From contig JAQVEM010000001.1 in assembly GCA_028697935.1 (NCBI GenBank), positions 2,475 to 42,417 of the forward strand: a stretch of DNA of 39,943 bases, in the 5' to 3' direction. Under the pieces are notes generated by a model, which made no database searches, was not told the origin of the DNA, and was given only the letters and a program-made list of their open reading frames with translations. This document shows positions 111 through 39,914 of the stretch, in pieces. A program made the translations under genes and the position numbers. Within the stretch, counting starts at the first letter, position 1, and every line of letters begins with the position of its first letter. This DNA comes from Actinomycetota bacterium (lineage in GTDB: Bacteria; Actinomycetota; Humimicrobiia; Humimicrobiales; Humimicrobiaceae).

Positions 111-119
111 AAGTAAAAA

Positions 120-149
120 ATCTGCGTAATCAGCGAAATCTGCGTGAAA
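120..149 (+). repeat. Phased 7-mer array, ATCTGCG dialect (atctgcgtaatcagcgaaatctgcgtgaaa)
   Basis: Three 7-mers (ATCTGCG / ATCAGCG / ATCTGCG) spaced about 9-10 bp apart, ending in GTGAAA. The same unit recurs more than 15 times in the window in both orientations. Confidence 0.9.
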
Positions 150-240
150 TAACTTGAGCTAATTAATTAATTTAAAAGTTATAAAATTTAGCTAAAAACA
201 TTAATGCATAGTAAAAGAACATATCTTTAATTATAAATTT
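150..240 (+). repeat. AT-rich core module M2, copy 1
   Basis: By eye about 90% identical to the reverse complement of 25285-25376, including the flanking array types. Confidence 0.8.
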
Positions 241-242
241 TT

Positions 243-420
243 ATCTGTGATATCTGTGCTATCTGTGAGAGGTTAACAAAAAATCTGTGATATCTGTGCT
301 ATCTGTGAGAGACCTTATCTGTGTAATCTGTGTAATCTGTGAGAGGTTAACAAAAAATCTGTGATATCTGTGCTATCTGTGAGAGACCTTATCTGTGATA
401 TCTGTGCAATCTGTGAGAGG
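243..420 (+). repeat. Tandem array of five ATCTGTG-dialect triplet units (higher-order period 74 bp, about 2.4 copies)
   Basis: Five units of (t)atctgtg x3 plus agag, with alternating spacers gttaacaaaaa and acct. Odd-numbered units start at 243, 317 and 391, giving a 74-bp period. All units have the same orientation. Confidence 0.9.
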
Positions 421-9812: not shown

Positions 9813-10555
9813 TCTCACGCAGATTGCGCTGATTCCGCAGATAAGTGCTCTCACAGATAACACAGATTTTAGTTTACCTCTCACAGATTACACGGATAAC
9901 ACAGATAAAAATTTATAATAATAAGATGTTAATATTAGAAGAATTACCGCACGCAGATTGCGCTGATTACGCAGATTTCTTTATTTATGTTAAGAATATT
10001 AAGCACAATCTAAAATTCTGAATTTATCATAGTATATATTATTAAAACCAAAACTGGGCTTAGACATTTCCTTTGCGATTTCAAGAGAGTTAAAATTATA
10101 ATATATTATCAATCATCCATCTGCGTTATCTGCAAAATCTAAGTACTGTATATTTTCATCTCACGCAGATTAAAGAATTTATAATTATAACATTAATAAT
10201 CATCTAACACTTCAAGTATTTATCGCAGTTTATAGTCATTGAAATAAATCATTTGGCTCAGATATTTTTTATTAGATTCCAATATAGTTAAAATTATAAT
10301 GTTTAATAATCATCCATCTGCGTTATCTGCGATATCTGCGTGAAATATAAATAATTATGTTACAGATAACACAGATTATTGTTTTGTAATAAAAAGAGTT
10401 TAAAGTACTTTACTATAAATTAGATCCTCTTACCTTTTTAATTAAGCTATGAATTTTAGGGTAGGTAAAATATAACAAATTTAGATTATTTTGAATTCTT
10501 ATTATAATTAAATCCAATCTGCGGAATCCGCGTTTTTATCTGCTTAATCCGCGGG
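9813..10555. repeat. Composite repeat region: phased 7-mer arrays alternating with core modules M5, M3, M4 and M1
   Basis: Plus-strand order (R = array as CRCAGAT, F = array as ATCTGYG; c = C/G-type, t = T/A-type). R-c 9813-9842, R-t 9848-9867, R-t 9878-9906, M5 9907-9947, R-c 9948-9976, M3 9977-10118, F-c 10119-10140. Then R-c 10159-10170, M4 10171-10315, F-c 10316-10345, R-t 10363-10376, M1 10397-10506, and a degenerate F-c 10517-10555. No ORF of 60 aa or more. Confidence 0.9.
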
Positions 10556-18293: not shown

Positions 18294-18362
18294 CTACAAA
18301 TTAGTCCACCAATTTACACAAATTAAGGAGAATCCACAAATTTACACAAATTAACACGAATT
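18294..18362 (+). repeat. Phased 8-mer arrays, CACAAATT/CACGAATT dialect (two triplets), left flank of GxxExxY gene 1
   Basis: The sequence is ctacaaatta GTCCACCAATTTACACAAATT aaggagaa TCCACAAATTTACACAAATTAACACGAATT. The period is about 10 bp, and the array runs into the stop codon of 18362..18739. Confidence 0.85.
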
Positions 18363-18739
18363 TATAAGATGAGGCGTTTATATACTAAACTTGAGGATCC
18401 AAAGTTGACTAATAAGCCAACTCTAAGTTTGGTAGCCTTTAGGTAGTTTAATAATTGAGAGATATGATCGTTAGAGATTTCTGCAAGAGCTTTTACTTCA
18501 ACAATTATATTATCAAAGCATAAAAAATCGGCTTTATAACATTTATCTAGGGTTTTCCCTTTATATACTATACGAATATCCTTTTCTTTTTCAAAAGGTA
18601 TTCCTTGCTCTAAAAATTCAAGCATTAAAGATTCTTGATATACAGCTTCAAGAAATCCCGGTCCCAATTCCTTATGAACATTCATACACGCTCCAATTAT
18701 CTTGTAGCATTCTTCTTTATACATAATATCATTATTCAT
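18362..18739 (-). CDS. GxxExxY protein (PD-(D/E)XK nuclease-fold, PDDEXK_3-like), copy 1
   Basis: 125-aa ORF with the family motif GPGFLEAVYQ (G-x-x-E-x-x-Y) and a downstream D...EVK (ADFLCFDNIIVEVKA) typical of PD-(D/E)XK cores. Confidence 0.85.
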   Translation of the reverse strand: MNNDIMYKEECYKIIGACMNVHKELGPGFLEAVYQESLMLEFLEQGIPFEKEKDIRIVYKGKTLDKCYKADFLCFDNIIVEVKALAEISNDHISQLLNYLKATKLRVGLLVNFGSSSLVYKRLIL

Positions 18740-18750
18740 AATTCAAGTAA

Positions 18751-18770
18751 AATTGTGCAAATTGGTGGAC
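18751..18770 (+). repeat. Inverted partner of the 18304-18321 motif (aattgtgcaaattggtggac)
   Basis: Its reverse complement gtccaccaatttgcacaa matches gtccaccaatttacacaa (18304-18321) at 17 of 18 positions. It lies between the GxxExxY start and the stop of the upstream gene. Confidence 0.85.
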
Positions 18771-19747
18771 TATAAATTATATATTCCCGGTTTATATTTG
18801 GCTAAGTTTCGTGGATCGCTGAACCACTCTACTGTTTTTTCAAGACCTTCTCTTAAAGGATATTGAGGTTCATAACCAGTTAGTTCTTTTATTTTGGTGT
18901 TATCACATCTTAATCTGAAGACTTCAGAATGTTCGGGTCTTAACCTTTGTTCTTCAACTATAAGATTTGCATCACTGTGCATTATATCTTTAATCAATGC
19001 AAATAATTCTTTTATAGAAATCTCATCATTTGAACCGATATTTACGGTTTCACCAATTGCTTTATCGCATTTAGCTAATAAAATAAAGCCATTACAAATA
19101 TCTTTCACATAATTGAAATCACGAGTTGGAGTAGTATCACCAATCTTAATTTCTTTATTTCCACTAGCAATTTGAGTGATAATTGTCGGAATCACCGCCC
19201 TGGCAGATTGACGAGGACCATAAGTATTAAATGGACGAACTATAGTAACAGGAAGTTGATAAGCATAATAAAAGCTCGTAGCAATCGCATCAGCACCAAT
19301 TTTACTGGCACTATATGGTGATTGAGGTTGCAATGGATGTTTTTCATCTATGGGAACATATTGTGCGGTACCATAAACTTCGCTGGTAGAAGTTACTAAT
19401 ATTCTTTTGACCTTACAATCTTTAGCTGCTTGACAAATATTCAAAGTGCCTTTGATATTAGTATCTATAAAGCTTTGTGGAGCAATATATGAATAGGGAA
19501 TAGCAATCAATGCAGCTAAGTGGAATATAACATCTATCCCCTTACAAATTTCTCTACAATATGCTGGATCTCTTACATCTCCACAAACAATCTCTAAATT
19601 AGAAGTTTGTTGAATATCTTCCAGCCATCCCCAGTAATTAAAAGAATTATATTGAGCTAAAGCTCTAACATCATATCCTTCCGCTAATAAAGATTCTGTT
19701 AGATGTGACCCAATAAATCCATCAGCTCCCGTAACTAAAACTTTCAT
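18770..19747 (-). CDS. NAD-dependent sugar-nucleotide dehydratase/epimerase (extended SDR, LegB-like 4,6-dehydratase type)
   Basis: Rossmann motif [12 protein letters not shown], then [11 protein letters not shown], and a catalytic YSASK. I use the ATG at 19747, which is preceded by AAGGAAG. The tracked GTG extension (VDRRKED) reads into the repeat motif. Confidence 0.75.
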   Translation of the reverse strand: MKVLVTGADGFIGSHLTESLLAEGYDVRALAQYNSFNYWGWLEDIQQTSNLEIVCGDVRDPAYCREICKGIDVIFHLAALIAIPYSYIAPQSFIDTNIKGTLNICQAAKDCKVKRILVTSTSEVYGTAQYVPIDEKHPLQPQSPYSASKIGADAIATSFYYAYQLPVTIVRPFNTYGPRQSARAVIPTIITQIASGNKEIKIGDTTPTRDFNYVKDICNGFILLAKCDKAIGETVNIGSNDEISIKELFALIKDIMHSDANLIVEEQRLRPEHSEVFRLRCDNTKIKELTGYEPQYPLREGLEKTVEWFSDPRNLAKYKPGIYNL

Positions 19748-25126: not shown

Positions 25127-26120
25127 CTCTCACAGATTGCACAGATGACACAGATAAGGTCTCTCACAGATTACACAGATAACACAGATAAAAATTTATA
25201 ATAATAGGTTGTAAACATTAGCAGGATTACCTCACGCAGATTACGCTGATTTCGCAGATAAGTTCTCTCACAGATAGCACAGATATAATTTATAATTAAA
25301 AATATGTTCATTTACAATGCATTAATGTTTGTAGCTAAATTTTATAGCTTTTAAATTGATCAATTAGCTCAATTTATCTCACGCAGATTACGCTGATTCC
25401 GCAGATATGGTCTCTCACAGATTACACAGATATCACAGATTATAATTATAATAAGATTGTTAAAACTGTATCAATTAATTAAAATTGCGTCTTATCGGCA
25501 TATATTAACATTCCCCTTGAATTAATTTTTAAAATCAGAATAAGTTCTTAGAGCATTACCATTCTCTATTCTAAAAAACTAATAAGGGCTTTTTTAAATA
25601 ACCGTTAGTATAAACCATGTTTCTATTCCAGATAAAATTATCATATCCATCAATTTCATTATAAGTGTTTTTAAAGTAATTCTGAAGTTAATTCATTATG
25701 ACGGTAAGAAATAGCACAATTTACATTATACATTAATTCTTTTAATTTCACTATAAATCCTTATCTGTGATATCTGTGATATCTGTGTTATCTGTGTTAT
25801 CTGTAACATAATTTTTTATATTTCACGCAGATATCGCAGATAACGCAGATGGATGATTATAAATACATTATAATTTTAACTATATTGAATCTATTAAAAA
25901 ATATCTGAGCCAAATGATTTATTTCAATGACTATAAACTGCGATAAATACTTGAAGTGTTAGATGATTATTAATGTTATAATTATAAATTCTTTAATCTG
26001 CGGAATCAGCGTAATCTGCGTGCAGTAATTCTTCTAATATTAACATCTTATTATTATAAATTTATATCTGTGTTATCTGTGCTATCTGTGAGAGACCTCA
26101 TCTGCGATATCTGCGTGAAA
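25127..26120. repeat. 1-kb ORF-free composite repeat region between wzx start and the next gene's stop
   Basis: Left half, all R orientation: R-t 25127-25155, R-t 25161-25189, M5-like 25190-25229, R-c 25230-25259, R-t 25265-25284, inverted M2 25285-25376, R-c 25377-25406, R-t 25411-25440. A unique 322-bp centre spans 25441-25762. Right half: F-t x5 25763-25805, R-c 25821-25850, inverted M4 25851-25994, F-c 25996-26023, inverted M5 about 26024-26065, F-t 26066-26096, F-c 26100-26120. Confidence 0.9.
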
Positions 26121-27058: not shown

Positions 27059-27078
27059 TATTTATTCCTCAATTTATA

Positions 27079-27501
27079 CCTCACGCAGATTACGCTGATT
27101 ACGCAGATTTCTTTATTTATAATTTGAGTGTCAAACATAATCTAAAGTTCTGAATTTATCTATGAATATTGCCAATAATATCAATTAATAGTTGGTTTGG
27201 AGATTTCTTTAACGAATTCAAGAGAGCTAAAATTATAAAGCATTATCATTCATTTATCTGCGTTATCTGCGATATCTAAGCACAGTATATTGTCATCTCA
27301 CGCAGATTACGCTGATTTCGCAGATTAAAGAATTTATAATAAGAATTATAATCATAATCTAAAATCCCAAAGTATTTTCTTATAATTTTGTAACTATACT
27401 CAATTATATGGCCTAAAGCTTTTTAAAGATTTCACTACAGTTAGATTAAATTATTAAACATAAAAACATCCATCTGCGTTATCTGCGCTATCTGCGTGAA
27501 A
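27079..27501. repeat. Composite repeat region (R-c, M3 copy 2, F-c, R-c, diverged M4-like core, F-c)
   Basis: R-c 27079-27107, M3 27108-27255 (alignable to 9977-10118), F-c 27256-27277, R-c 27296-27325, a core 27326-27471 whose ends resemble M4, and F-c 27472-27501 (atctgcgttatctgcgctatctgcgtgaaa). Confidence 0.85.
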
Positions 27502-27511
27502 CATAACTAAT

Positions 27512-27907
27512 TTATTGAAGATCTGGATGATGAATATCATTTGCTACTCTTATTATATTGTCTTTGATTGAATCAGTATTGAAATTGATCAGAAAACCTA
27601 AAGGTTTCTTTGCTATTTTTAGATAAGTTATCAATTGCTTATAATGAACTGGTAATAATGTATCAACAGATTTCAATTCGAGGATTACTTGATCATTTAT
27701 TAAAAAATCAAGTCTGTACTGAATTCCAAGGTTAACACCTTTGTATAGAACTTCTATGGGAACCTGATTTTCTACTTTCAGACCTCTATTATTTAATTCA
27801 ATTAAAAGAGCTTGCGCATAAATATTTTCAAGCAAACCCGGACCTAATATATTGTAAACCTCAAAAACTGAACCTCTGATTTGATAACTTATATCATTCA
27901 AATTCAT
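27512..27907 (-). CDS. GxxExxY protein (PD-(D/E)XK nuclease-fold), copy 2
   Basis: 131-aa ORF with the motif GPGLLENIYAQ and a downstream LDFLINDQVILELKS (D...ELK). Confidence 0.85.
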   Translation of the reverse strand: MNLNDISYQIRGSVFEVYNILGPGLLENIYAQALLIELNNRGLKVENQVPIEVLYKGVNLGIQYRLDFLINDQVILELKSVDTLLPVHYKQLITYLKIAKKPLGFLINFNTDSIKDNIIRVANDIHHPDLQ

Positions 27908-27915
27908 TGTATTTT

Positions 27916-28225
27916 TCTCACGCTGATTACGATAATTCTATTTTTCATTTTATTTCACGCAGATTACGCTGATTTCGCTGATTTTTTTACTTATAATAAG
28001 AATATTCAAAATAATCTAAATTTGTTATATTTTACCTACCCTAAAATTAATAGATTAATTAAAAAGGTAAGAGGAGCTAATTTATAGTAAAGTACTTTAA
28101 ACTCTTTTTATTACAAAACATTAATCTGTGATATCTGTGCAATCTGTGAGAGGTGAAAAAAATCTGTGTTATCTGTGCAATCTGTGAGAGACCTTATCTG
28201 CGTTATCTGCGAAATCTGCGTGAGA
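27916..28225. repeat. Composite repeat region (degenerate R, R-c, inverted M1, two F-t units, F-c)
   Basis: Degenerate tctcacgctgattacgat 27916-27933, R-c 27953-27982 (tttcacgcagattacgctgatttcgctgat), inverted M1 27991-28103, F-t 28122-28153, F-t 28162-28193, F-c 28194-28225. The tracked plus-strand ORF 27881..28087 simply reads through these repeats. Confidence 0.9.
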
Positions 28226-28717: not shown

Positions 28718-29518
28718 TCAAGTTATTGTTAAATAACTATTATTTATAACTGATTTATTTGTTTGTTTAACAATTATTTTCTTTATCTGATTTTTAACAT
28801 TCTGGGCTAATAATTCTCTTGTCCAGTAAAATATATTATCATTCCAGCGTTGTGGATGAGTATTAATCATAATCTGTTCGGGTAATTTATTCTCCTGGAT
28901 TAAATTGATTAGTTGATTAGTATTTTTTATTTGAAAATTATGGGCTGAATGCACTTTATCTCGTATACTAACATCTTCACTATTCCATCTTCTACCGGTA
29001 TCGGTTAAATATAGCACTTTATTAAAATCTATATCAAGATAAGGTTCACATATTATATCTTCGTCTCTGTAATCATATTTTCCCCATAACTTTCTATTAT
29101 CAAATCTTGATAAGGGGCTACCATGCATACAGATTGTTTTTACTGGAGCTATTTTTCTCAATTTCCCAAGGTTTACCTTAAAAGAAAGATATGCTTTATC
29201 AATATCCCCCTTACACAAATCAACATCCTCATAATGATAACCTATATTATGACCCAATGCTGAGATTTCTCTGATTATAGATTGGATAAAAGAGTCTGTA
29301 ACTATTCTAAAATAATAAGTGGCATAAATATCTTTACTCTTTTCTAGTTTAACGAATTTTAAAGCATTAAGGGGCATTTTATCTATATCGTGCCTCATAA
29401 TTATTACCTTAGATAAGGGTGAGCCTATAAAATCTTCTACAGTTTGAAAATTATAGCCAGCTTTTTTAAAAGCATCCAACAATTCATTATACTTTTTTAA
29501 TGTAAAATCCCTATTCAA
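28718..29518 (-). CDS. Polysaccharide-deacetylase-like protein (CE4-superfamily-like, O-antigen-cluster type)
   Basis: 266-aa ORF. The N-terminal pattern YNELLDAFKKAGYNFQTVEDF....IIMRHDIDKMPLNALKFVKLEKSKDIYATYYF resembles a family of deacetylase-like proteins that I recall from O-antigen loci. Recognised by pattern only. Confidence 0.45.
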   Translation of the reverse strand: MNRDFTLKKYNELLDAFKKAGYNFQTVEDFIGSPLSKVIIMRHDIDKMPLNALKFVKLEKSKDIYATYYFRIVTDSFIQSIIREISALGHNIGYHYEDVDLCKGDIDKAYLSFKVNLGKLRKIAPVKTICMHGSPLSRFDNRKLWGKYDYRDEDIICEPYLDIDFNKVLYLTDTGRRWNSEDVSIRDKVHSAHNFQIKNTNQLINLIQENKLPEQIMINTHPQRWNDNIFYWTRELLAQNVKNQIKKIIVKQTNKSVINNSYLTIT

Positions 29519-29548
29519 AAAAAGCCACCTAAATTCCCGAAAAATAGT

Positions 29549-29917
29549 TTAATGGGCAATTCTCTGGAATTCTAATTTTGCCACATTGCCAAAGTTTAAG
29601 ATATATCCTACTTTGAGCCCTGTTGCACTTAGATAATTTATTATTTGTGCGCAATGCATTGAATGAATTATATTACAAGCTTTGAGCTCCAGTATAATTT
29701 TACCTTCTACAATAATATCAGCAATATAATCTCCAACAATTTGATCTCTATAAAAAACTGGTATAGGAACCTGATAAACATAACTAATACCTTGATATTT
29801 AAATTCTACACATAAAGCTCGTTCATATACTTTTCCCAAATATCCGGCACCCAGCTCTTTGTGAACAGCAATTGCACAACCAATAATTCTATCACTCAGC
29901 TCCTTCTCATATATCAT
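29549..29917 (-). CDS. GxxExxY-family protein (PD-(D/E)XK fold), copy 3, with the signature Glu replaced by Gly
   Basis: 122-aa ORF that aligns with copies 1 and 2. Its motif reads GAGYLGKVYE (G-x-x-G-x-x-Y), while the D...ELK block (ADIIVEGKIILELKA) is retained. Confidence 0.8.
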   Translation of the reverse strand: MIYEKELSDRIIGCAIAVHKELGAGYLGKVYERALCVEFKYQGISYVYQVPIPVFYRDQIVGDYIADIIVEGKIILELKACNIIHSMHCAQIINYLSATGLKVGYILNFGNVAKLEFQRIAH

Positions 29918-29950
29918 AAATTTTGGGCTTTCCCTTTCTTATTTTAAAAA

Positions 29951-30424
29951 TTATATAACCTTTTCGGTGTCTTCGGTGCTATCGGTGGCTAATATTTTTG
30001 TATTGTAAATTACCTTTCGGTGCTCTAGGTGTTTTCGGTGGCTAATAAAAATAAACAGCAGAGTCAATATTGCTCCAAAGAGATTCGCTATCATATCCAT
30101 AGGATTAAAGGTTCTATAAGGCAAGAGATATTGTAAACATTCACTGATTATAGCAGAACCGCCTACAATTAGTATATATTTCAAAACAGATTTATGATTA
30201 AAAATTGGATTGCCTTGCCTTTCCGCTATCAAATATAAAGGGATAAAGACAAGAAAAGATACAAAATGAATAAGATAATCCAATCTAAATTCAAATATAG
30301 ATTTGTGAATGATACGATTTAAATCATCTCCCAAGGGAATAACATTCATTGCTAAAACTATAATCAGCCATCCCCAAAATAACCATCTTGCCCCATTTGC
30401 CATCCTTTTATCTTGTATCATCAT
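29951..30424 (-). CDS. VanZ-like family membrane protein
   Basis: 157-aa ORF with 4 TM-like segments. It has DYLIHFVSFLVF and SECLQYLLPYRTFNPMDMIANLFGAI, resembling VanZ-family blocks. The last ~30 codons are encoded by the TTCGGTG arrays. Confidence 0.6.
   Translation of the reverse strand: MMIQDKRMANGARWLFWGWLIIVLAMNVIPLGDDLNRIIHKSIFEFRLDYLIHFVSFLVFIPLYLIAERQGNPIFNHKSVLKYILIVGGSAIISECLQYLLPYRTFNPMDMIANLFGAILTLLFIFISHRKHLEHRKVIYNTKILATDSTEDTEKVI
29961..30043 (+). repeat. Two phased triplet arrays, TTCGGTG dialect, separated by a 22-bp spacer
   Basis: 7-mers ttcggtg / ttcggtg / atcggtg start at 29963, 29972 and 29981. 7-mers ttcggtg / ctaggtg / ttcggtg start at 30016, 30025 and 30034. The period is exactly 9, and each triplet ends in GGCTAAT. 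Confidence 0.9.
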
Positions 30425-30434
30425 TATATTTTTT

Positions 30435-30542
30435 TCTCTGTGCTCTCAGTGGTTAAATTTTTGTCGGTGTATTCGGTGTTCTCGGTGGCTAATATTTTTG
30501 TATTGTAAATTACTTTTCGGTGCTCTTGGTGTCTTCGGTGGC
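30435..30542 (+). repeat. Second copy of the TTCGGTG double-array module plus a ctctgtg/ctcagtg pair
   Basis: 7-mers start at 30435 and 30444, at 30462, 30471 and 30480, and at 30515, 30524 and 30533 (period 9). The internal spacer gctaatatttttgtattgtaaattac is the same as at 29988-30013. Confidence 0.9.
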
Positions 30543-31658
30543 TTCTTCTTTTTTCTCAAACCATTCATCAAGTACTTTTACAATTCTGCTGGCTGTCTTT
30601 CCATCCCAATATTTAGGTATTTTCCCCTGTTTTACATTCCCTTCAATAATTTCCCTGGCACTATTAACGATACTTTCCACATTCAAGTCAACAAGATGAT
30701 TGGTACCTTCTGTAACGGTTATCGGTCTTTCCGTATTTTCTCGTAAGGTTAAACAAGGAACACCAAAATAGGTTGATTCCTCTTGAATACCTCCCGAATC
30801 TGTTAGGATAAATTTTGCATTCATCTCTAACTTGAGAAAATCTAAATATCCTAATGGCTCAGTAATAATAAGATTTGAACTAGTATTTAAAATAGATGAT
30901 AAACCAAGTTCATAAATATTTTTCCTCGTTCGGGGATGCATAGGAAAGATAATCTTTATTTTTCTCCCTATGATTTCCAAAGAGGTTAGCAACATTTTTA
31001 AACCTTCATACTCATCAACATTAGATGGTCTATGTAATGTTACTAAGGCATATTTTTCATTAGGTACCATATTTAATTGGTGAAAAATATTAGAATTTTC
31101 AGCTTTATCTTTATGTGCGACCAGAGAATCAATCATAATATTTCCCACAAAATAAATTTTACCTGGCTCTATACCCTCTTTTTCCAAATTTTTATTTGCA
31201 TCCAGCGAAGGTGTTAATAAAATATCGGATATTCTATCTGTTAGAACTCTATTTATCTCTTCAGGCATTCTATCATCATAACTTCTTAGACCCGATTCAA
31301 GATGAGCTACAGGAATATATAATTTCTTAGCCACTAAAGCACAAGCAATTGTAGAATTAACATCACCTGCAACAATAACTAAATCAGGTTTATCCTCTGA
31401 TAGAATCAAATCTTCATATCGTTCTATTATCCTGGCTGTCTGTTTCCCCTGTGTGCCTGAACCTACATTTAAATAGGCAGATGGCTCAGGCATAGCCAAA
31501 TCATTAAAAAAGAGTTTGGACATTTGTTCATCATAGTGCTGTCCTGTATGTATTATCTGGGGTTCATATCTATTACTATACAACGATAATTTTCTATAAA
31601 GAGGTGCCATTTTCATAAAATTAGGTCTTGCACCCACTATCAAATGAATTAATCTCAT
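30510..31658 (-). CDS. wecB: UDP-N-acetylglucosamine 2-epimerase (non-hydrolysing, WecB family)
   Basis: 382-aa ORF with VGARPNFMKMAPL, HTGQHYDEQMS, GDVNSTIA and HLESGLRSYDDRMPEEINR. The last ~11 codons (EEATEDTKSTEK) are encoded by the repeat array. Confidence 0.85.
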   Translation of the reverse strand: MRLIHLIVGARPNFMKMAPLYRKLSLYSNRYEPQIIHTGQHYDEQMSKLFFNDLAMPEPSAYLNVGSGTQGKQTARIIERYEDLILSEDKPDLVIVAGDVNSTIACALVAKKLYIPVAHLESGLRSYDDRMPEEINRVLTDRISDILLTPSLDANKNLEKEGIEPGKIYFVGNIMIDSLVAHKDKAENSNIFHQLNMVPNEKYALVTLHRPSNVDEYEGLKMLLTSLEIIGRKIKIIFPMHPRTRKNIYELGLSSILNTSSNLIITEPLGYLDFLKLEMNAKFILTDSGGIQEESTYFGVPCLTLRENTERPITVTEGTNHLVDLNVESIVNSAREIIEGNVKQGKIPKYWDGKTASRIVKVLDEWFEKKEEATEDTKSTEK

Positions 31659-31732: not shown

Positions 31733-31766
31733 TCGTTTGTCTCGTTTGTCTCGGTGGCTTCGGTGG
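31733..31766 (+). repeat. Phased array, TCGTTTG/TCGGTGG dialect (4 units, period 9)
   Basis: Units tcgtttg, tcgtttg, tcggtgg and tcggtgg start at 31733, 31742, 31751 and 31760. The array lies between the DUF354-like stop and the wecB start. Confidence 0.85.
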
Positions 31767-31768
31767 CT

Positions 31769-32851
31769 TCATTTAAATATACCAAAATCAAAATCCTTTG
31801 CCTTAACCTCTTTTACCGATTCAGGATAATTTTCTATAAACCAAACCCAGAATGCTGTTACATCAATTTTATCTTGAAGAAGTTTCTCTCTCTTTTTTTG
31901 CCATTCTTCTTTTAAATTAGGAAGTTCCAGAAATTCTTTTATTCTATAAAGCATCCAATCAAATTGAGAAGGATGATAACCAATGGTTAAACCGTATTTC
32001 AATTCTAATTCCTCCAAAACTGCCAATCTATTAGCAAAAGTATTACAACGAAATGAAGGGACTCCTAATACAGCTGCTTCTATAGTCATAGTTTGCGAAT
32101 CAGATATTAGCATTTGAGCATAATATAAAAAAGTATGTATTTCATCAGCTGCTATTGGCATTCTGAATTCAGCAAATTCTGGCTCTAATTCTGTTTCCGT
32201 CGTTATAAATACTTTCCCATATTTAGAAAGAGTATCTATCAAAATATGTTTTTGTTCTTTATTTAAGCCATATTCGTGAATATCATGATGAGCTTTAAAA
32301 GCATTAAACCTTAATATAAAATATTTATTCTCTTCATTTAATCCATATTTTGTCAGGATACTGGGATCAGGTGTAAAATTATTAGGATGTAAATAAGCAA
32401 GTTCATGATAACCAGGATAATATATAGCATTTTTGAGATTTTCATAACTTAGAACATCTGGTGATAGAATATGATCTACATAAGGAGAAACAAACTTTGC
32501 TGTAAATGGTTGAACTGCCTGGTCATCTTCATCCAATAATATTGATTTAGCCTTAGTTACCTTTGAGGCAAAAACTAATAATGAAGCGCCAATTACTATA
32601 TCTATTTCTTTCTCTTTTATAATATTCTTTACCTTACGATTAAAACTAAATTGTTTAATAATTTTCTCTCTAATATTTTTGCCCTTCTCGCCAATTTCAA
32701 TATAGGGTATCTGATAGGTATTTAATAGATTTCTTACTATTGGAATAGATTGACAAACTACGGTTAAATTATGATTATCCTTTAATCTATAATACAAATT
32801 TTTAATGTTATGAAAATGGGCAGGATGAGCTATACCAATTAATATGTTCAT
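31769..32851 (-). CDS. DUF354-family protein (predicted glycosyltransferase-like)
   Basis: MNILIGIAHPAHFHNIKNLYYRL matches the DUF354 N-terminal block (I-x-I-x-HPAH-x-H-x-F-K). I start at the ATG at 32851. The tracked 15-codon extension uses TTG and overlaps the preceding pseudogene tail. Confidence 0.6.
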   Translation of the reverse strand: MNILIGIAHPAHFHNIKNLYYRLKDNHNLTVVCQSIPIVRNLLNTYQIPYIEIGEKGKNIREKIIKQFSFNRKVKNIIKEKEIDIVIGASLLVFASKVTKAKSILLDEDDQAVQPFTAKFVSPYVDHILSPDVLSYENLKNAIYYPGYHELAYLHPNNFTPDPSILTKYGLNEENKYFILRFNAFKAHHDIHEYGLNKEQKHILIDTLSKYGKVFITTETELEPEFAEFRMPIAADEIHTFLYYAQMLISDSQTMTIEAAVLGVPSFRCNTFANRLAVLEELELKYGLTIGYHPSQFDWMLYRIKEFLELPNLKEEWQKKREKLLQDKIDVTAFWVWFIENYPESVKEVKAKDFDFGIFK

Positions 32852-37859: not shown

Positions 37860-39821
37860 TCAAACAATTACCTCTCCTTTCACCCAGCCCTCTTCTGGAT
37901 TAACTTCGGATATGATTAATTTAACTGAGTTATGCAGTGGTAAAATCTCCTCTGATTGGAGGAAGATATGTTTATCCCAATTAGTTATTTCAACTAGATA
38001 GCCATCTGTCATAGAACGGATAAGGATGGCATTAAGGGGTTGCTGAAGATATTTTCTCTGAAGAAAGCAAAGAAACCAATATTGTTCACTACGAGCAGCT
38101 ACAGTATGCAAATATAAAACTCGTTCTTCTATTACAGGTATTATAGTTCTCAATTCATCAGCAGAAAAAGGCGGTTTTCCCTTTTTTAGCAAAGCTTCAA
38201 ACTGAACTTGATTGATGATATCAGTAACCCTTCGGATCGGAGAAGTACTATGCAGATAGGCTTTTGAGCCAATTCCAGGGTGAAATCCTGCCTCAGTAGA
38301 AAGAAAAACCTGGTAATAATTATTAGAATCCTCATTCCAACCTTCTTCGTATTGAGCAATATTCCGGTAAATGCAGGGAAGTCCACTCGCAGAAGCGTAT
38401 TCAGCCAGAAAGCGATTATAAAGCACCATCAGTTCTTCAATCAATAAGCGGGAAGGACTATAAAAATCAATACATTCCATCATCAGTTCGCCATTTTTAC
38501 AGACCACATTCCATTCATATCTATTTTTCCCATTACTCTCAAATATCTTATGTCCTTGATTAATATTCCGCACTAACTGAAATAAAGATGAATGCTGGTT
38601 GTTACTTAAATAGCTATCCATATCTTTATAACTGAGGTTTTGTTTCACGCAGATATATTCTGATTTAAATTCCTCTTTTTGAATTTTGAATTGGTTATCC
38701 AAAAACAGATATAAAGACAGCACCTTTCTATTTTCTCCTGCTTTTAGACTGAAAACATCACTGGAAAAGGATGGCGGAAGCAAAGGAATAGTTTCGCAAG
38801 GAAGATATAAAGAGCTAACTCTTTCGCAAGCTTCGTTAAATACAGGAGAATTTAGAGGAAGTTGACCTCCTACATCACTGATATGAATACCCAAAATCCA
38901 TCCCTGCTTAAACTCTTGAAGTGAAATGGCATCATCATAATCGGGAGAATCTGCTGCATCTATAGTAAAGGCATCCAGATTTGCTATATTTTGTCTGCTG
39001 GATTTCTGCTTCAATTCAGCTTGCAATTTCCTCGCTTCTTCCAGCACTTCAGCACTGAAATTTATCGGAATGCCACTATCAGCAGCTATCTTGTCCGTAT
39101 TAGGAGATATATCACCCAGAAGCAAACGAATATTTCTGATTAATGTTCTCAATTTCTGATCGTTACTAAATTTACGGAGAATTTTTGCCAGGTCTTTAGG
39201 TGTGTTCCAACGAAGTAATTCTCTTAGTTCAGCAAGGAATCTTGTTCTGGATTCAGGTGCAAGTGAGGGAGAAATTTGATATTTTATGGTTGAAAAAGAA
39301 TACAGAGAAAGCAAAATATCCAGGTTAGCTTGCAGAAACCTTTCCACTTCTTGTAGAAAAATAGCTCTTTCTTTTGTTTCTGCTTCTTTTTTAAGGTATT
39401 TTAGGCGTTCTTCTTCATTGCGAAAAGAAAAGACCCCCTTTTTGTATTTAAGAAGGTCTTTTCTTTGCAAAATAAGCAAATAAAGGGCAAATCGTTCTAA
39501 ATCATCCTTATCTCCAAGATAGGAGTTTGCCTCATCAAAAGTGAAAGATTCCTTTCTTTCTTGCAATTGCTGAAGCCAAATTTCGCCTTGTTCTTCCATT
39601 TTAAATCTTATTTTATCCTTCAAATCCTTCAAAGTGTTAGAGGATAAAGGTTCATAGCATTTATCCGAAACAAGGATAAATCGTGCAGAAGGTAAAATAT
39701 AGCTTTCGCCCTCTTCACTTAGCACCTTCCAGTGTTTATTCTCTATCCCAGTTATTATGCCAAAATGGAGGTTCCCGTCCTGATAGAAGAGAACTATTTT
39801 CCCTATTTTAAGATTGACCAT
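37860..39821 (-). CDS. RNase II / RNase R family 3'-5' exoribonuclease (RNB domain)
   Basis: RNB motifs DAFTIDAADSPDYDDAISL and HSTSPIRRVTDIINQ. The start is set at Met18 (ATG 39821, AAGGA 5 nt upstream), because the tracked TTG extension is the tRNA gene read in frame. Confidence 0.85.
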   Translation of the reverse strand: MVNLKIGKIVLFYQDGNLHFGIITGIENKHWKVLSEEGESYILPSARFILVSDKCYEPLSSNTLKDLKDKIRFKMEEQGEIWLQQLQERKESFTFDEANSYLGDKDDLERFALYLLILQRKDLLKYKKGVFSFRNEEERLKYLKKEAETKERAIFLQEVERFLQANLDILLSLYSFSTIKYQISPSLAPESRTRFLAELRELLRWNTPKDLAKILRKFSNDQKLRTLIRNIRLLLGDISPNTDKIAADSGIPINFSAEVLEEARKLQAELKQKSSRQNIANLDAFTIDAADSPDYDDAISLQEFKQGWILGIHISDVGGQLPLNSPVFNEACERVSSLYLPCETIPLLPPSFSSDVFSLKAGENRKVLSLYLFLDNQFKIQKEEFKSEYICVKQNLSYKDMDSYLSNNQHSSLFQLVRNINQGHKIFESNGKNRYEWNVVCKNGELMMECIDFYSPSRLLIEELMVLYNRFLAEYASASGLPCIYRNIAQYEEGWNEDSNNYYQVFLSTEAGFHPGIGSKAYLHSTSPIRRVTDIINQVQFEALLKKGKPPFSADELRTIIPVIEERVLYLHTVAARSEQYWFLCFLQRKYLQQPLNAILIRSMTDGYLVEITNWDKHIFLQSEEILPLHNSVKLIISEVNPEEGWVKGEVIV

Positions 39822-39838
39822 ATAATCCTTTATATCTA

Positions 39839-39914
39839 TGGCGCCCCAGAGATGATTTGAACATCCGACCAACGGTTTAGGAAACCGCTGCTCTATCCTC
39901 TGAGCTACTGGGGC
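39839..39914 (-). tRNA. tRNA-Arg (anticodon CCT/CCU), CCA encoded
   Basis: The minus-strand 76-nt sequence is GCCCCAG TA GCTC AGAGGATA GAGC A GCGGT TTCCTAA ACCGT TGGTC GGATG TTCAAAT CATCT CTGGGGC G CCA. It folds into a canonical cloverleaf with a 7-bp acceptor, 4-bp D stem, 5-bp anticodon stem and 5-bp T stem with a TTCAAAT loop. Confidence 0.9.

Follow-up and report, generated by a model that had tools for sequence, protein, structure and literature searches.

In the repetitive extragenic palindromic (REP)/REP-associated tyrosine transposase (RAYT) systems, a small enzyme gene is flanked by inverted short repeats that are dispersed as intergenic hairpin doublets, and one genome holds several enzyme-repeat pairs. 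The intervening sequences of 23S rRNA, of the Leptospira and Coxiella type, consist of an inverted-repeat-bounded open reading frame (ORF) whose product is a four-helix bundle of family PF05635. We analysed a stretch of 39,943 nucleotides (the window hereafter; positions 2,475 to 42,417 of contig JAQVEM010000001.1, assembly GCA_028697935.1), which is a polysaccharide-biosynthesis cluster with 29.6% G+C and nearly all of its genes on the - strand, and whose closest database proteins are those of Candidatus Cloacimonas. The window contains three genes of the GxxExxY family (PF13366/TIGR04256), here called copies 1 to 3, and the subject of this analysis is copy 3, a gene of 122 codons at 29549..29917 (-), together with the tandem heptamer repeats that surround it. 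The results showed that relatives of copy 3 in many genomes lie in a stereotyped cassette, between inverted arms of tandem heptamers whose sequence, or dialect, goes with the clade of the protein. This cassette architecture, more than the allele carried by copy 3, is the notable result, and it explains the dialects that a sequence-only reading of the window had noticed.

Judged by behaviour, REP/RAYT is the nearest analogue of the cassette, since the GxxExxY gene is likewise flanked by inverted cognate repeats, hairpin doublets of these repeats are dispersed, several dialect pairs are present per genome and the protein clade tracks the repeat. The cassette is nevertheless not a member of that group, its enzyme being of the PD-(D/E)XK type and not an HUH Y1 (IS200/IS605-like) transposase, and its arm being an array of tandem heptamers at 9-10 bp and not a single imperfect palindrome. 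The 23S rRNA intervening sequences share with it an ORF of ~120 amino acids inside terminal inverted repeats able to form a long stem in the transcript (locus L043, below), whereas the GxxExxY protein belongs to PF13366, its gene lies between protein-coding genes, there is no rRNA in the window and the arms carry no wobble signature. By eye, no four-helix-bundle protein was found among the ORFs between arms, for which no scan against PF05635 was made.

Copy 3 matched PF13366 (E 3.6e-40, 137.4 bits, cut-off 22) and TIGR04256, "GxxExxY protein" (E 3.3e-39, 133.9 bits, cut-off 35), over its full length, and these were its sole matches in Pfam and NCBIfam. Residues 23-31 read GAGYLGKVY, in which G25-Y-L-G28-K-V-Y31 fails the G-x-x-E-x-x-Y signature, while D67, E77-L-K79, Q91 and Y95, which make up the D, E-x-K and Q-xxx-Y motifs of a single domain of ~120-130 amino acids, were all intact. 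On these profile matches copy 3 is a family member by descent in which a signature residue has been mutated. The three paralogues of the window all matched both profiles end to end, with a mutual identity of only 31-40%. In the AlphaFold2 model of copy 3 (predicted local distance difference test, pLDDT, 95.6), helix H28-41, strands E46-56, E59-70 and E74-79, helix H86-99 and strand E103-108 form the restriction-endonuclease-like alpha-beta-beta-beta-alpha-beta core, and the Foldseek matches of this model were nearly all PD-(D/E)XK nucleases, among them Cas4 SSO0001 (4ic1, TMq 0.61), lambda exonuclease (3sm4), LHK-Exo (3syy) and Hjc. The order helix Glu, D, ExK, QxxxY is the pattern of the RecB family, and both this order and the predicted fold liken copy 3 to the RecB/Cas4/lambda-exonuclease branch, from which it differs in being a core only (122 amino acids), without an iron-sulphur cysteine cluster, a helicase or a CRISPR partner. 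The PD-(D/E)XK catalytic set of copy 3 is incomplete, as E28, the acidic residue that the first core helix contributes, is replaced by Gly.

At the level of sequence, a phmmer search of copy 3 against PDB chains gave no match, and a profile search against PDB gave only a doubtful N-terminal match (2f8l, E = 0.055). The PADLOC defence models gave no match for copy 3 and only a weak partial match to PDC-M36A for copy 1, the PHROGs phage families gave no real match, and identity with a defence or phage family was rejected on these results. The family is very large, with more than 15,000 sequence clusters, and with 36,244 clusters at 50% identity when matches at E <= 1e-3 are counted. Its function is listed as unknown in a table entry (PMC3424549), and apart from this entry and two incidental mentions the literature searched gave no functional study of GxxExxY, PDDEXK_3, PF13366 or TIGR04256.

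The genomic surroundings of 80 loci of copy 3 relatives were taken from GTDB, of which 76 were counted for arms and compared with 375 control positions in the same loci. These loci span many bacterial phyla (Planctomycetota, Acidobacteriota, Chloroflexota, Pseudomonadota, Fusobacteriota, Spirochaetota, Bacteroidota and Nitrospirota) and include archaeal ones (Methanoperedens, Methanosarcinales). Almost everywhere the flanks showed one plan, a GxxExxY ORF between inverted arms of two to three tandem heptamers; at L043, for example, TTAGCCACGAAAGAGCACGAAAAAGCACGAAAA stands ~15 nt before the start codon and TTTTCGTGTTCTTTTCGTGTCCTTTCGTGGCTAA directly after the stop codon. Triple arrays were found within 150 nt upstream of the gene at 45 of the 76 loci and at 16 of the 375 controls, and within 150 nt downstream at 48 loci and 13 controls, while matching inverted cores on both sides were found at 24 loci and at none of the controls. 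The distance from an upstream (U) arm to the next matching downstream (D) arm peaked at 350-500 nt, a further group of distances being shorter than 100 nt, and GxxExxY genes accounted for 49 of the 65 arm-flanked ORFs of 60-260 amino acids, most of the others being antisense shadows or ORFs running through the repeats themselves. The arms were genuine inverted repeats, 30-37 nt long. Their outer end was sharp and frequently read TTA(G/A)CC, and it often supplied or abutted the stop codon of the upstream gene; short-loop hairpins near a cassette shared its dialect in 9 of 11 cases. No description of these flanking heptamer arms was found in the literature searched; annotation-level notes may exist elsewhere.

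Two departures from this plan were seen. In Leptospira/Spirochaetota (L017:4850-5600 and L038), the gene was flanked on either side by runs of at least 10 AACAGGATA-type repeats, which point the same way in both flanks and do not form a simple inverted pair. At L025:4423-4927, one arm pair enclosed an ORF of 63 amino acids that is by eye a HicB-type antitoxin-like candidate and not a GxxExxY gene.

The dialects were compared with the proteins for the 43 cassettes that gave a clear call, which fell into seven dialects. The nearest protein neighbour used the same dialect in 30 of the 43 cases when 7.1 were expected (permutation p < 0.0005), and mean protein identity was 56.6% within dialect classes and 47.1% between them, a difference that 2,000 permutations never reached. 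Classes extend across phyla, ATCCTG for instance being found in Chloroflexota, Spirosoma, a Bordetella-labelled bin, Nitrospirota and Lentisphaerota; the single family Pyrinomonadaceae contains two dialect classes, and the three paralogues of the window genome have three dialects. The dialect of copy 3, CACCGAA on the gene strand (TTCGGTG on the + strand), had been read as a third one from the window alone, and it is real: the nearest relative of copy 3 in the set, L011, which comes from another genome and has 60% identity, uses CACCGA. Since the dialect tracks the protein clade, ORF and arms are inherited and transferred as one unit, and this link fits recognition of the arms by the protein. 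A mutual-information scan for specificity residues was too confounded by shared descent and was not used.

Around copy 3, the D arm at 29524..29543 (-) has two heptamers and GGC (TTTTCGGGAATTTAGGTGGC on the gene strand; the interval reads GCCACCTAAATTCCCGAAAA on the + strand and TTCGGGAatTTAGGTGGC on the - strand), and it is two bases off the orthologue consensus TTTTCGGTAATTTCGGTGGC. The proximal U arm at 29960..29993 (-), ATTAGCCACCGAtaGCACCGAAgaCACCGAAAAGG on the gene strand, has three heptamers with a period of 9 and the outer end TTAGCC, and the distal U arm at 30013..30046 (-), ATTAGCCACCGAAAACACCTAGAGCACCGAAAGG on the gene strand, overlaps the 3' end of the listed VanZ ORF. The sequence-only reading had described an inverted remnant to the left of the gene, which is present as a two-unit arm, and two perfect period-9 triplets to the right, of which the period is exactly 9 while the heptamers are not all identical. 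The first triplet (29963-29993: TTCGGTG tc TTCGGTG ct ATCGGTG GCTAAT) contains one deviating base and the second (30016-30046: TTCGGTG ct CTAGGTG tt TTCGGTG GCTAAT) contains two. A search with the pattern TTCGGTGNNTTCGGTG, allowing up to three mismatches, gave 12 matches when 0.66 were expected, a number that was reached in none of 100 shuffles, and period-9 triple heptamers formed 35 clusters in the window compared with 0-2 at periods of 7, 8 and 10-13.

Repeats of the same dialect, which the earlier reading had not reported, were also found away from copy 3. A second double-U-arm module of ~80 bp, at 30460..30543 (-), separates VanZ from the epimerase gene, whose final codons it overlaps (..ATEDTKSTEK, then stop), and a partial arm of the TTCGGTG dialect (TCGTTTG / CTCGGTGGCTTCGGTGGC) lies at 31733..31774 (-), between two glycan genes. 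The TTCGGTG repeats are thus not private to copy 3, and since the k-mer depth of the arm module in other metagenomes was 4-13 times that of the gene, the arms are multi-copy. The two ~80-bp modules flank VanZ as direct repeats. The listed VanZ ORF runs through an arm (window 29951-30046), giving a tail ..ISHRKHLEHRK..ATDSTEDTEKVI before its stop, and the listed UDP-GlcNAc 2-epimerase ORF does the same (window 30510-30543), with the tail ..EEATEDTKSTEK before its stop. It would seem from these sequences that arms were inserted at the 3' ends of genes or within them.

We then examined residue 28. The codon at 29834..29836 (-) is GGA (Gly) in copy 3 and GAA (Glu) in the codon table of its orthologues, and the variable base is position 29835 of the + strand, where C gives Gly and T gives Glu (an A-to-G transition on the gene strand). 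The alignment placed Gly28 at the family Glu, as the sequence-only reading had proposed from the motif, and the D...ELK that it had reported as retained is there as D67 and E77-L-K79. Position 28 was Glu in 119 of 123 aligned homologues, in all 10 of the closest orthologue clusters (79-96% identity) and in all 13 of the other members read from the 90% cluster of copy 3, so that Gly is not widespread among orthologues. E28G was the sole amino-acid change of copy 3 that was shared with none of the relatives read.

Comparison of 192 domains from the best 149 family representatives showed that the triad D67/E77/K79 was intact in 147 domains and that E28 was present in every one of these, while E32, the neighbouring glutamate of VYERAL, was present in just 101 of them and was otherwise Q, H, K or R. 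Among the 45 domains with a broken triad, most of which were the degenerate half of two-domain fusions, E28 was kept in only 9, and the combination of Gly28 with an intact triad was found in no representative. Since E28 is co-conserved with the intact triad and E32 is variable, Glu28 is, on this pattern, part of the catalytic set and Glu32 cannot replace it; Glu32 as a stand-in was rejected, in agreement with the sequence-only reading, which had listed such a substitution among the findings that would speak against it. In the AlphaFold2 model, residue 28 sits at the start of the first core helix (H28-41), and a Glu from this helix commonly completes PD-(D/E)XK active sites (PMC3424549). The Gly28 allele is probably impaired in catalysis.

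The two-domain fusions, of ~260 amino acids, made up ~43 of the best 149 representatives (P0135-P0283). In the dozen domain combinations printed, one domain typically kept G-E-Y-E-D-E-K-Q-Y and the other had lost most of the catalytic residues. Such a pairing of one intact with one degenerate domain suggests that the working unit is a dimer with a single active site.

The sequence-only reading had also taken the short left arm as a decayed partner repeat and copy 3 as an inactivated or domesticated copy, perhaps under relaxed selection. The left arm had two units in every orthologue (TTTCGGTAATTTCGGTGGC), so that its shortness is ancestral, and the extra changes specific to the window were 2 in the 20 bases of the arm compared with 13 in 369 bases of the gene, which was not significant (Fisher p = 0.18); a significant additional decay of this arm is unsupported. 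The ratio of non-synonymous to synonymous substitution rates (dN/dS) was 0.29 between the window and L001, 0.22 between the window and L006 and 0.16 between L001 and L006, which indicates purifying selection, and the ORF is intact; relaxed selection or pseudogenisation is likewise unsupported. The order epimerase, VanZ, GxxExxY was conserved in many contigs, even in those with differing downstream genes. On these comparisons copy 3 is a conserved gene under purifying selection, neither anciently decayed nor long domesticated. What stood of the idea of an inactivated copy is the loss of the catalytic Glu, which is not replaced and makes impaired catalysis reasonable; what did not stand is the decay or long domestication, the change being a recent minority allele.

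Two other observations concern the region of copy 3. After its orthologue in L006 (4370-5165), and also in L008, L009 and L010, there are ~7 tandem units of ~123 bp, each made of the last ~30 codons of the gene and the D arm, which are absent from L007:4370-4400; the raised k-mer depth over window positions 29519-29651 in runs X8, X15 and X18 agrees with such tandem copies. In run X2, a metatranscriptome, the contigs of the gene (window 29400-30400) had an assembler depth of ~330 compared with ~105-116 for their neighbours; although contig depth reflects expression poorly, some transcription of the gene at least is evident, and the allele in X2 is the Glu form.

The best reading of these results, which draws on the analogy with REP/RAYT, would be that the cassette is a selfish or semi-domesticated unit made of a nuclease and its cognate repeats. 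Such a cassette, a widespread unit of ~450-520 bp, consists of a minimal PD-(D/E)XK nuclease of ~122 amino acids with RecB/Cas4-like motifs between two arms, each with two to three tandem copies of one heptamer at a period of 9-10 bp and an outer end of the TTA(G/A)CC type. Each protein clade travels with its own heptamer dialect, and arms of these kinds are also found with no ORF between them, either in short hairpins or in elements of ~200 bp, resembling miniature inverted-repeat transposable elements (MITEs), which fill intergenic DNA. We infer an action of the nuclease on its own arms: the protein, working as a dimer or larger multimer, would bind heptamer arrays of its own dialect and cut there, and cutting would help the cassette, and likewise the derivatives lacking an ORF, to be copied or to recombine, with a logic akin to that of REP/RAYT or of a free-standing homing nuclease. 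The three cassettes in Candidatus Cloacimonas are old residents of a polysaccharide locus, kept by purifying selection, and the protein of the Gly28 allele would most likely bind and no longer cut, or cut poorly. That the GxxExxY cassette is a nuclease with cognate arms, and copy 3 its ORF with a young loss-of-function allele, is the explanation towards which we lean, by a modest degree.

The PD-(D/E)XK homing endonucleases (I-Ssp6803I, I-Bth0305I) resemble the cassette in that a small nuclease of this fold is a selfish gene, with a weak structural match to 3r3p, and insertion of a gene between the halves of a palindromic site would give the U-gene-D layout; they differ from it in that the GxxExxY gene lies outside any intron or intein. 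A wider proposal is that the cassettes of GxxExxY genes make up a class of bacterial and archaeal elements, mobile or homing, that has so far gone unrecognised and whose core-only nuclease would recognise its own heptamers, cut hairpin or inverted-repeat sites and copy itself and its ORF-less derivatives into intergenic DNA. This we put forward tentatively, as possible and somewhat doubtful.

Two explanations leave the protein without a role at the arms, and both appear unlikely to us. The arms might act in RNA, with the U/D stem around the ORF serving in a polycistronic transcript for processing (by RNase III), stabilisation or termination and with GxxExxY as cargo that has an unrelated job. 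This would suit arms that are intergenic in a one-directional gene cluster, often right after stop codons and sometimes beside A/T runs, in a region that metatranscriptome contigs also cover; the 23S rRNA intervening sequences are a precedent for inverted-repeat-bounded ORFs, and the arms of L043 fold into a stem of ~36 bp that encloses the ORF (z = -4.5). A stem, however, needs no threefold heptamer in each arm, and the copy 3 region folded no better than shuffles (z = -1.0). Comparison of the two arms of a cassette showed an identity of 88% in the heptamer cores, 59% in the spacers and 37% in the inner flanks, and since the cores are more conserved than the spacers, it is the repeated word, and less so continuous pairing, that selection acts on. 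Mismatches between arms were of the G-U type in 25 cases and of the A-C type in 30 (p = 0.59), so that no wobble asymmetry indicative of selection on pairing in the sense strand was found. The dialect tracks the protein clade, and some arm pairs (L045) are preceded by T-runs and followed by A-runs, the reverse of what a terminator has. Taken together, the sequence evidence speaks more for protein-binding sites repeated on DNA than for a role in RNA structure alone. The presence of a known RNA family at the arms was rejected, as an Rfam scan of the window at gathering thresholds gave only a tRNA and no rRNA.

Alternatively, the arms could be the ends of MITE-like elements moved by another, unlinked transposase or recombinase, and GxxExxY a passenger, such as a defence or housekeeping nuclease, that was captured many times. 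The Correia elements of Neisseria are MITEs to which the ORF-less elements of ~200 bp are similar in their terminal inverted repeats of ~28 bp, their intergenic position, their multiple copies and the near-identity of some of them. In the window, ORF-less elements far outnumber genes (41 arms, 3 genes) and one pair of elements is 97.7% identical; copy 2 lies between elements and not inside one, a few other ORFs are found between arms (VanZ, an ORF of 227 amino acids in L035 and one of 174 in L053), and the loops between conserved arms vary by strain. Unlike MITEs, the cassettes have heptamer arrays as terminal repeats and a candidate cognate gene between identical arms, and the terminal inverted repeats that they share with insertion sequences (arms of 30-37 nt) are not accompanied by a match to any transposase family. 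The GxxExxY share of the arm-flanked ORFs given above, in a sample chosen for that family, also speaks for the gene and not for a passenger, as does the breadth of the association, across many phyla of bacteria and some archaea that need have no other enzyme in common. The dialect follows the GxxExxY clade and not the host, and matches to known defence families were absent. A nuclease with cognate arms remains our preferred explanation, and the following points weigh against it. A protein of 122 amino acids has little room for a separate DNA-recognition module, and shared descent of whole cassettes could give the same association of protein and dialect. All three copies were at fixed positions in every strain sampled, with no direct sign of present-day mobility of the gene-bearing unit; no direct repeat indicating a target-site duplication was found outside ~45 arm pairs, which also sets the cassettes apart from MITEs, and no pair of filled and empty alleles was found among the sampled strains. 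Copy 2 is placed between two arm-bounded elements of ~200 bp, whose outer arm ends face the gene, and not inside an arm pair. The catalytic role of Glu28 was assigned from co-conservation and not from 3-D distances, and an independent Gly at position 28 occurs in P0018, so that some tolerance is possible. The 80 GTDB loci were chosen by their similarity to copy 3, which limits generality to such relatives.

As for the allele itself, a sequencing or assembly error would account for a single-base difference from all of the database orthologues. Its probability is negligible in our view, and it was rejected, because the Gly base (C at 29835) was present in 3 of 12 public runs (X1, X4 and X14) at full depth (~58x in X1 and 48x in X4), the other nine (X2, X3, X5, X7, X8, X10, X13, X15 and X18) having the Glu base (T), and database records contain the exact Gly28 protein from 2 contigs. 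At 13 further places the contig from X4 does not agree with the window, which puts the allele on at least two haplotypes. Gly28 is a real, recent and rare minority allele. It could still be tolerated or functionally shifted, the protein remaining useful as a weak nuclease or as a "domesticated" DNA binder that does not cut, and this would parallel the degenerate half of the two-domain fusions, in which dead domains are retained. An intact ORF, the occurrence of the allele on at least two haplotypes (the window and X4, both Gly, differ in the gene by 1 non-synonymous and 3 synonymous changes, counted by hand) and the independent Gly in P0018 would agree with it. None of the 147 domains with an intact triad lacked E28, however, each of the two Gly cases is a private tip with Glu in its nearest relatives, Gly was in only 3 of the 12 runs, and the substitutions on the Gly lineage are too few to measure selection. 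We regard a tolerated or shifted Gly28 as distinctly improbable and prefer to see in it a young loss of function.

The window contains several other cassettes and arms. The copy 1 cassette at 18296..18775 (-) has the canonical U-gene-D layout, with the gene at 18362..18739, period-10 arms at 18296-18355 and 18750-18775 and the dialect AATT(T/C/G)GTG...GGAC. Copy 2 (27472..27985, -; gene 27512..27907) has arms of the ATCTGCG dialect on both sides, in the order D-gene-U, and the paralogue at the place of copy 2 in L001 is arranged canonically, a U arm lying 11 nt ahead of its start codon. After this paralogue, at L001:5680-6830, there are GxxExxY gene fragments, each preceded by its own CACAGAT-type U arm, and this region looks like a small graveyard of partial cassettes. 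A lone two-unit arm of a fifth dialect, CTCTGTGctCTCAGTGGTTAAA (CTCTGTG/CTCAGTG), at 30436..30457 (-), ends 11 nt upstream of the start codon of VanZ. The dialects of the window other than that of copy 3 are ATCTGTG..AGAG, ATCTGCG..TGAG, AATTTGTG..GGAC (period 10) and CTCTGTG..GTTAA; two of them, ATCTGTG and CTCTGTG/CTCAGTG, have no gene beside them in the window, a further point that goes beyond the sequence-only reading.

Of the 41 arrays in the window, 39 were intergenic, and many were paired as inverted arms around ~150 bp of AT-rich sequence. Dialects other than TTCGGTG fill the intergenic regions 119-420, 9818-10376, 25131-26115 and 27084-28220. The first of these (119..420) is an array of ATCTGCG and ATCTGTG arms with no ORF, the second (9818..10376) contains arm-bounded AT-rich elements, also with no ORF, and the third (25131..26115) is a mosaic of ATCTGTG/ATCTGCG arms and loops of ~150 bp with no GxxExxY remnant. 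The last includes, downstream of copy 2, two tandem elements of the ATCTGCG dialect made of a U arm, ~150 bp and a D arm (27084..27496) and, upstream of copy 2, an element made of a U arm, ~140 bp and a D arm that is followed by two further arms (27958..28220). The ORF-less arm-bounded element of 214 bp at 10164-10376 was 97.7% identical to an inverted copy at 25790-26002, 16 kb away, which suggests a recent duplication or movement. A six-frame hidden Markov model search of the window for decayed GxxExxY sequences in the ~150-bp loops gave no fragment beyond the three genes.

Comparison of strains downstream of copy 2 (L091:1896-2341, L097:794-1250 and window 27059-27511) showed that the first ~150-bp loop between the conserved ATCTGCG-type arms differs by strain, and in L091 the first loop repeats the second; the arms seem to act as exchange points. 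An apparent length difference in L097 was rejected as a filled/empty polymorphism, since it is a scaffold gap of Ns. The tRNA of the Rfam scan (65.5 bits, window 39842-39914, -) overlaps the listed TTG start region of the 670-amino-acid ORF at 37860..39872, the true start of which is probably further downstream.

Taken alone, E28G is a minor population variant of modest interest, which may be useful as a natural active-site mutant. The wider meaning lies in the cassette, as a very large family without an assigned function sits in a stereotyped inverted-repeat cassette in which the repeat word co-varies with the protein, and such cassettes are a possible explanation for the dense period-9 intergenic repeats in genomes such as that of Cloacimonas. 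If recognition of the arms is real, GxxExxY proteins would be among the smallest sequence-specific nucleases known, with a 7-base specificity that varies naturally by clade, and the arms would form a novel REP-like system of repeats by which variable loci, polysaccharide clusters for example, are shaped. If the cassettes are indeed a class of mobile or homing elements, this would give a function to the GxxExxY family, which has none.

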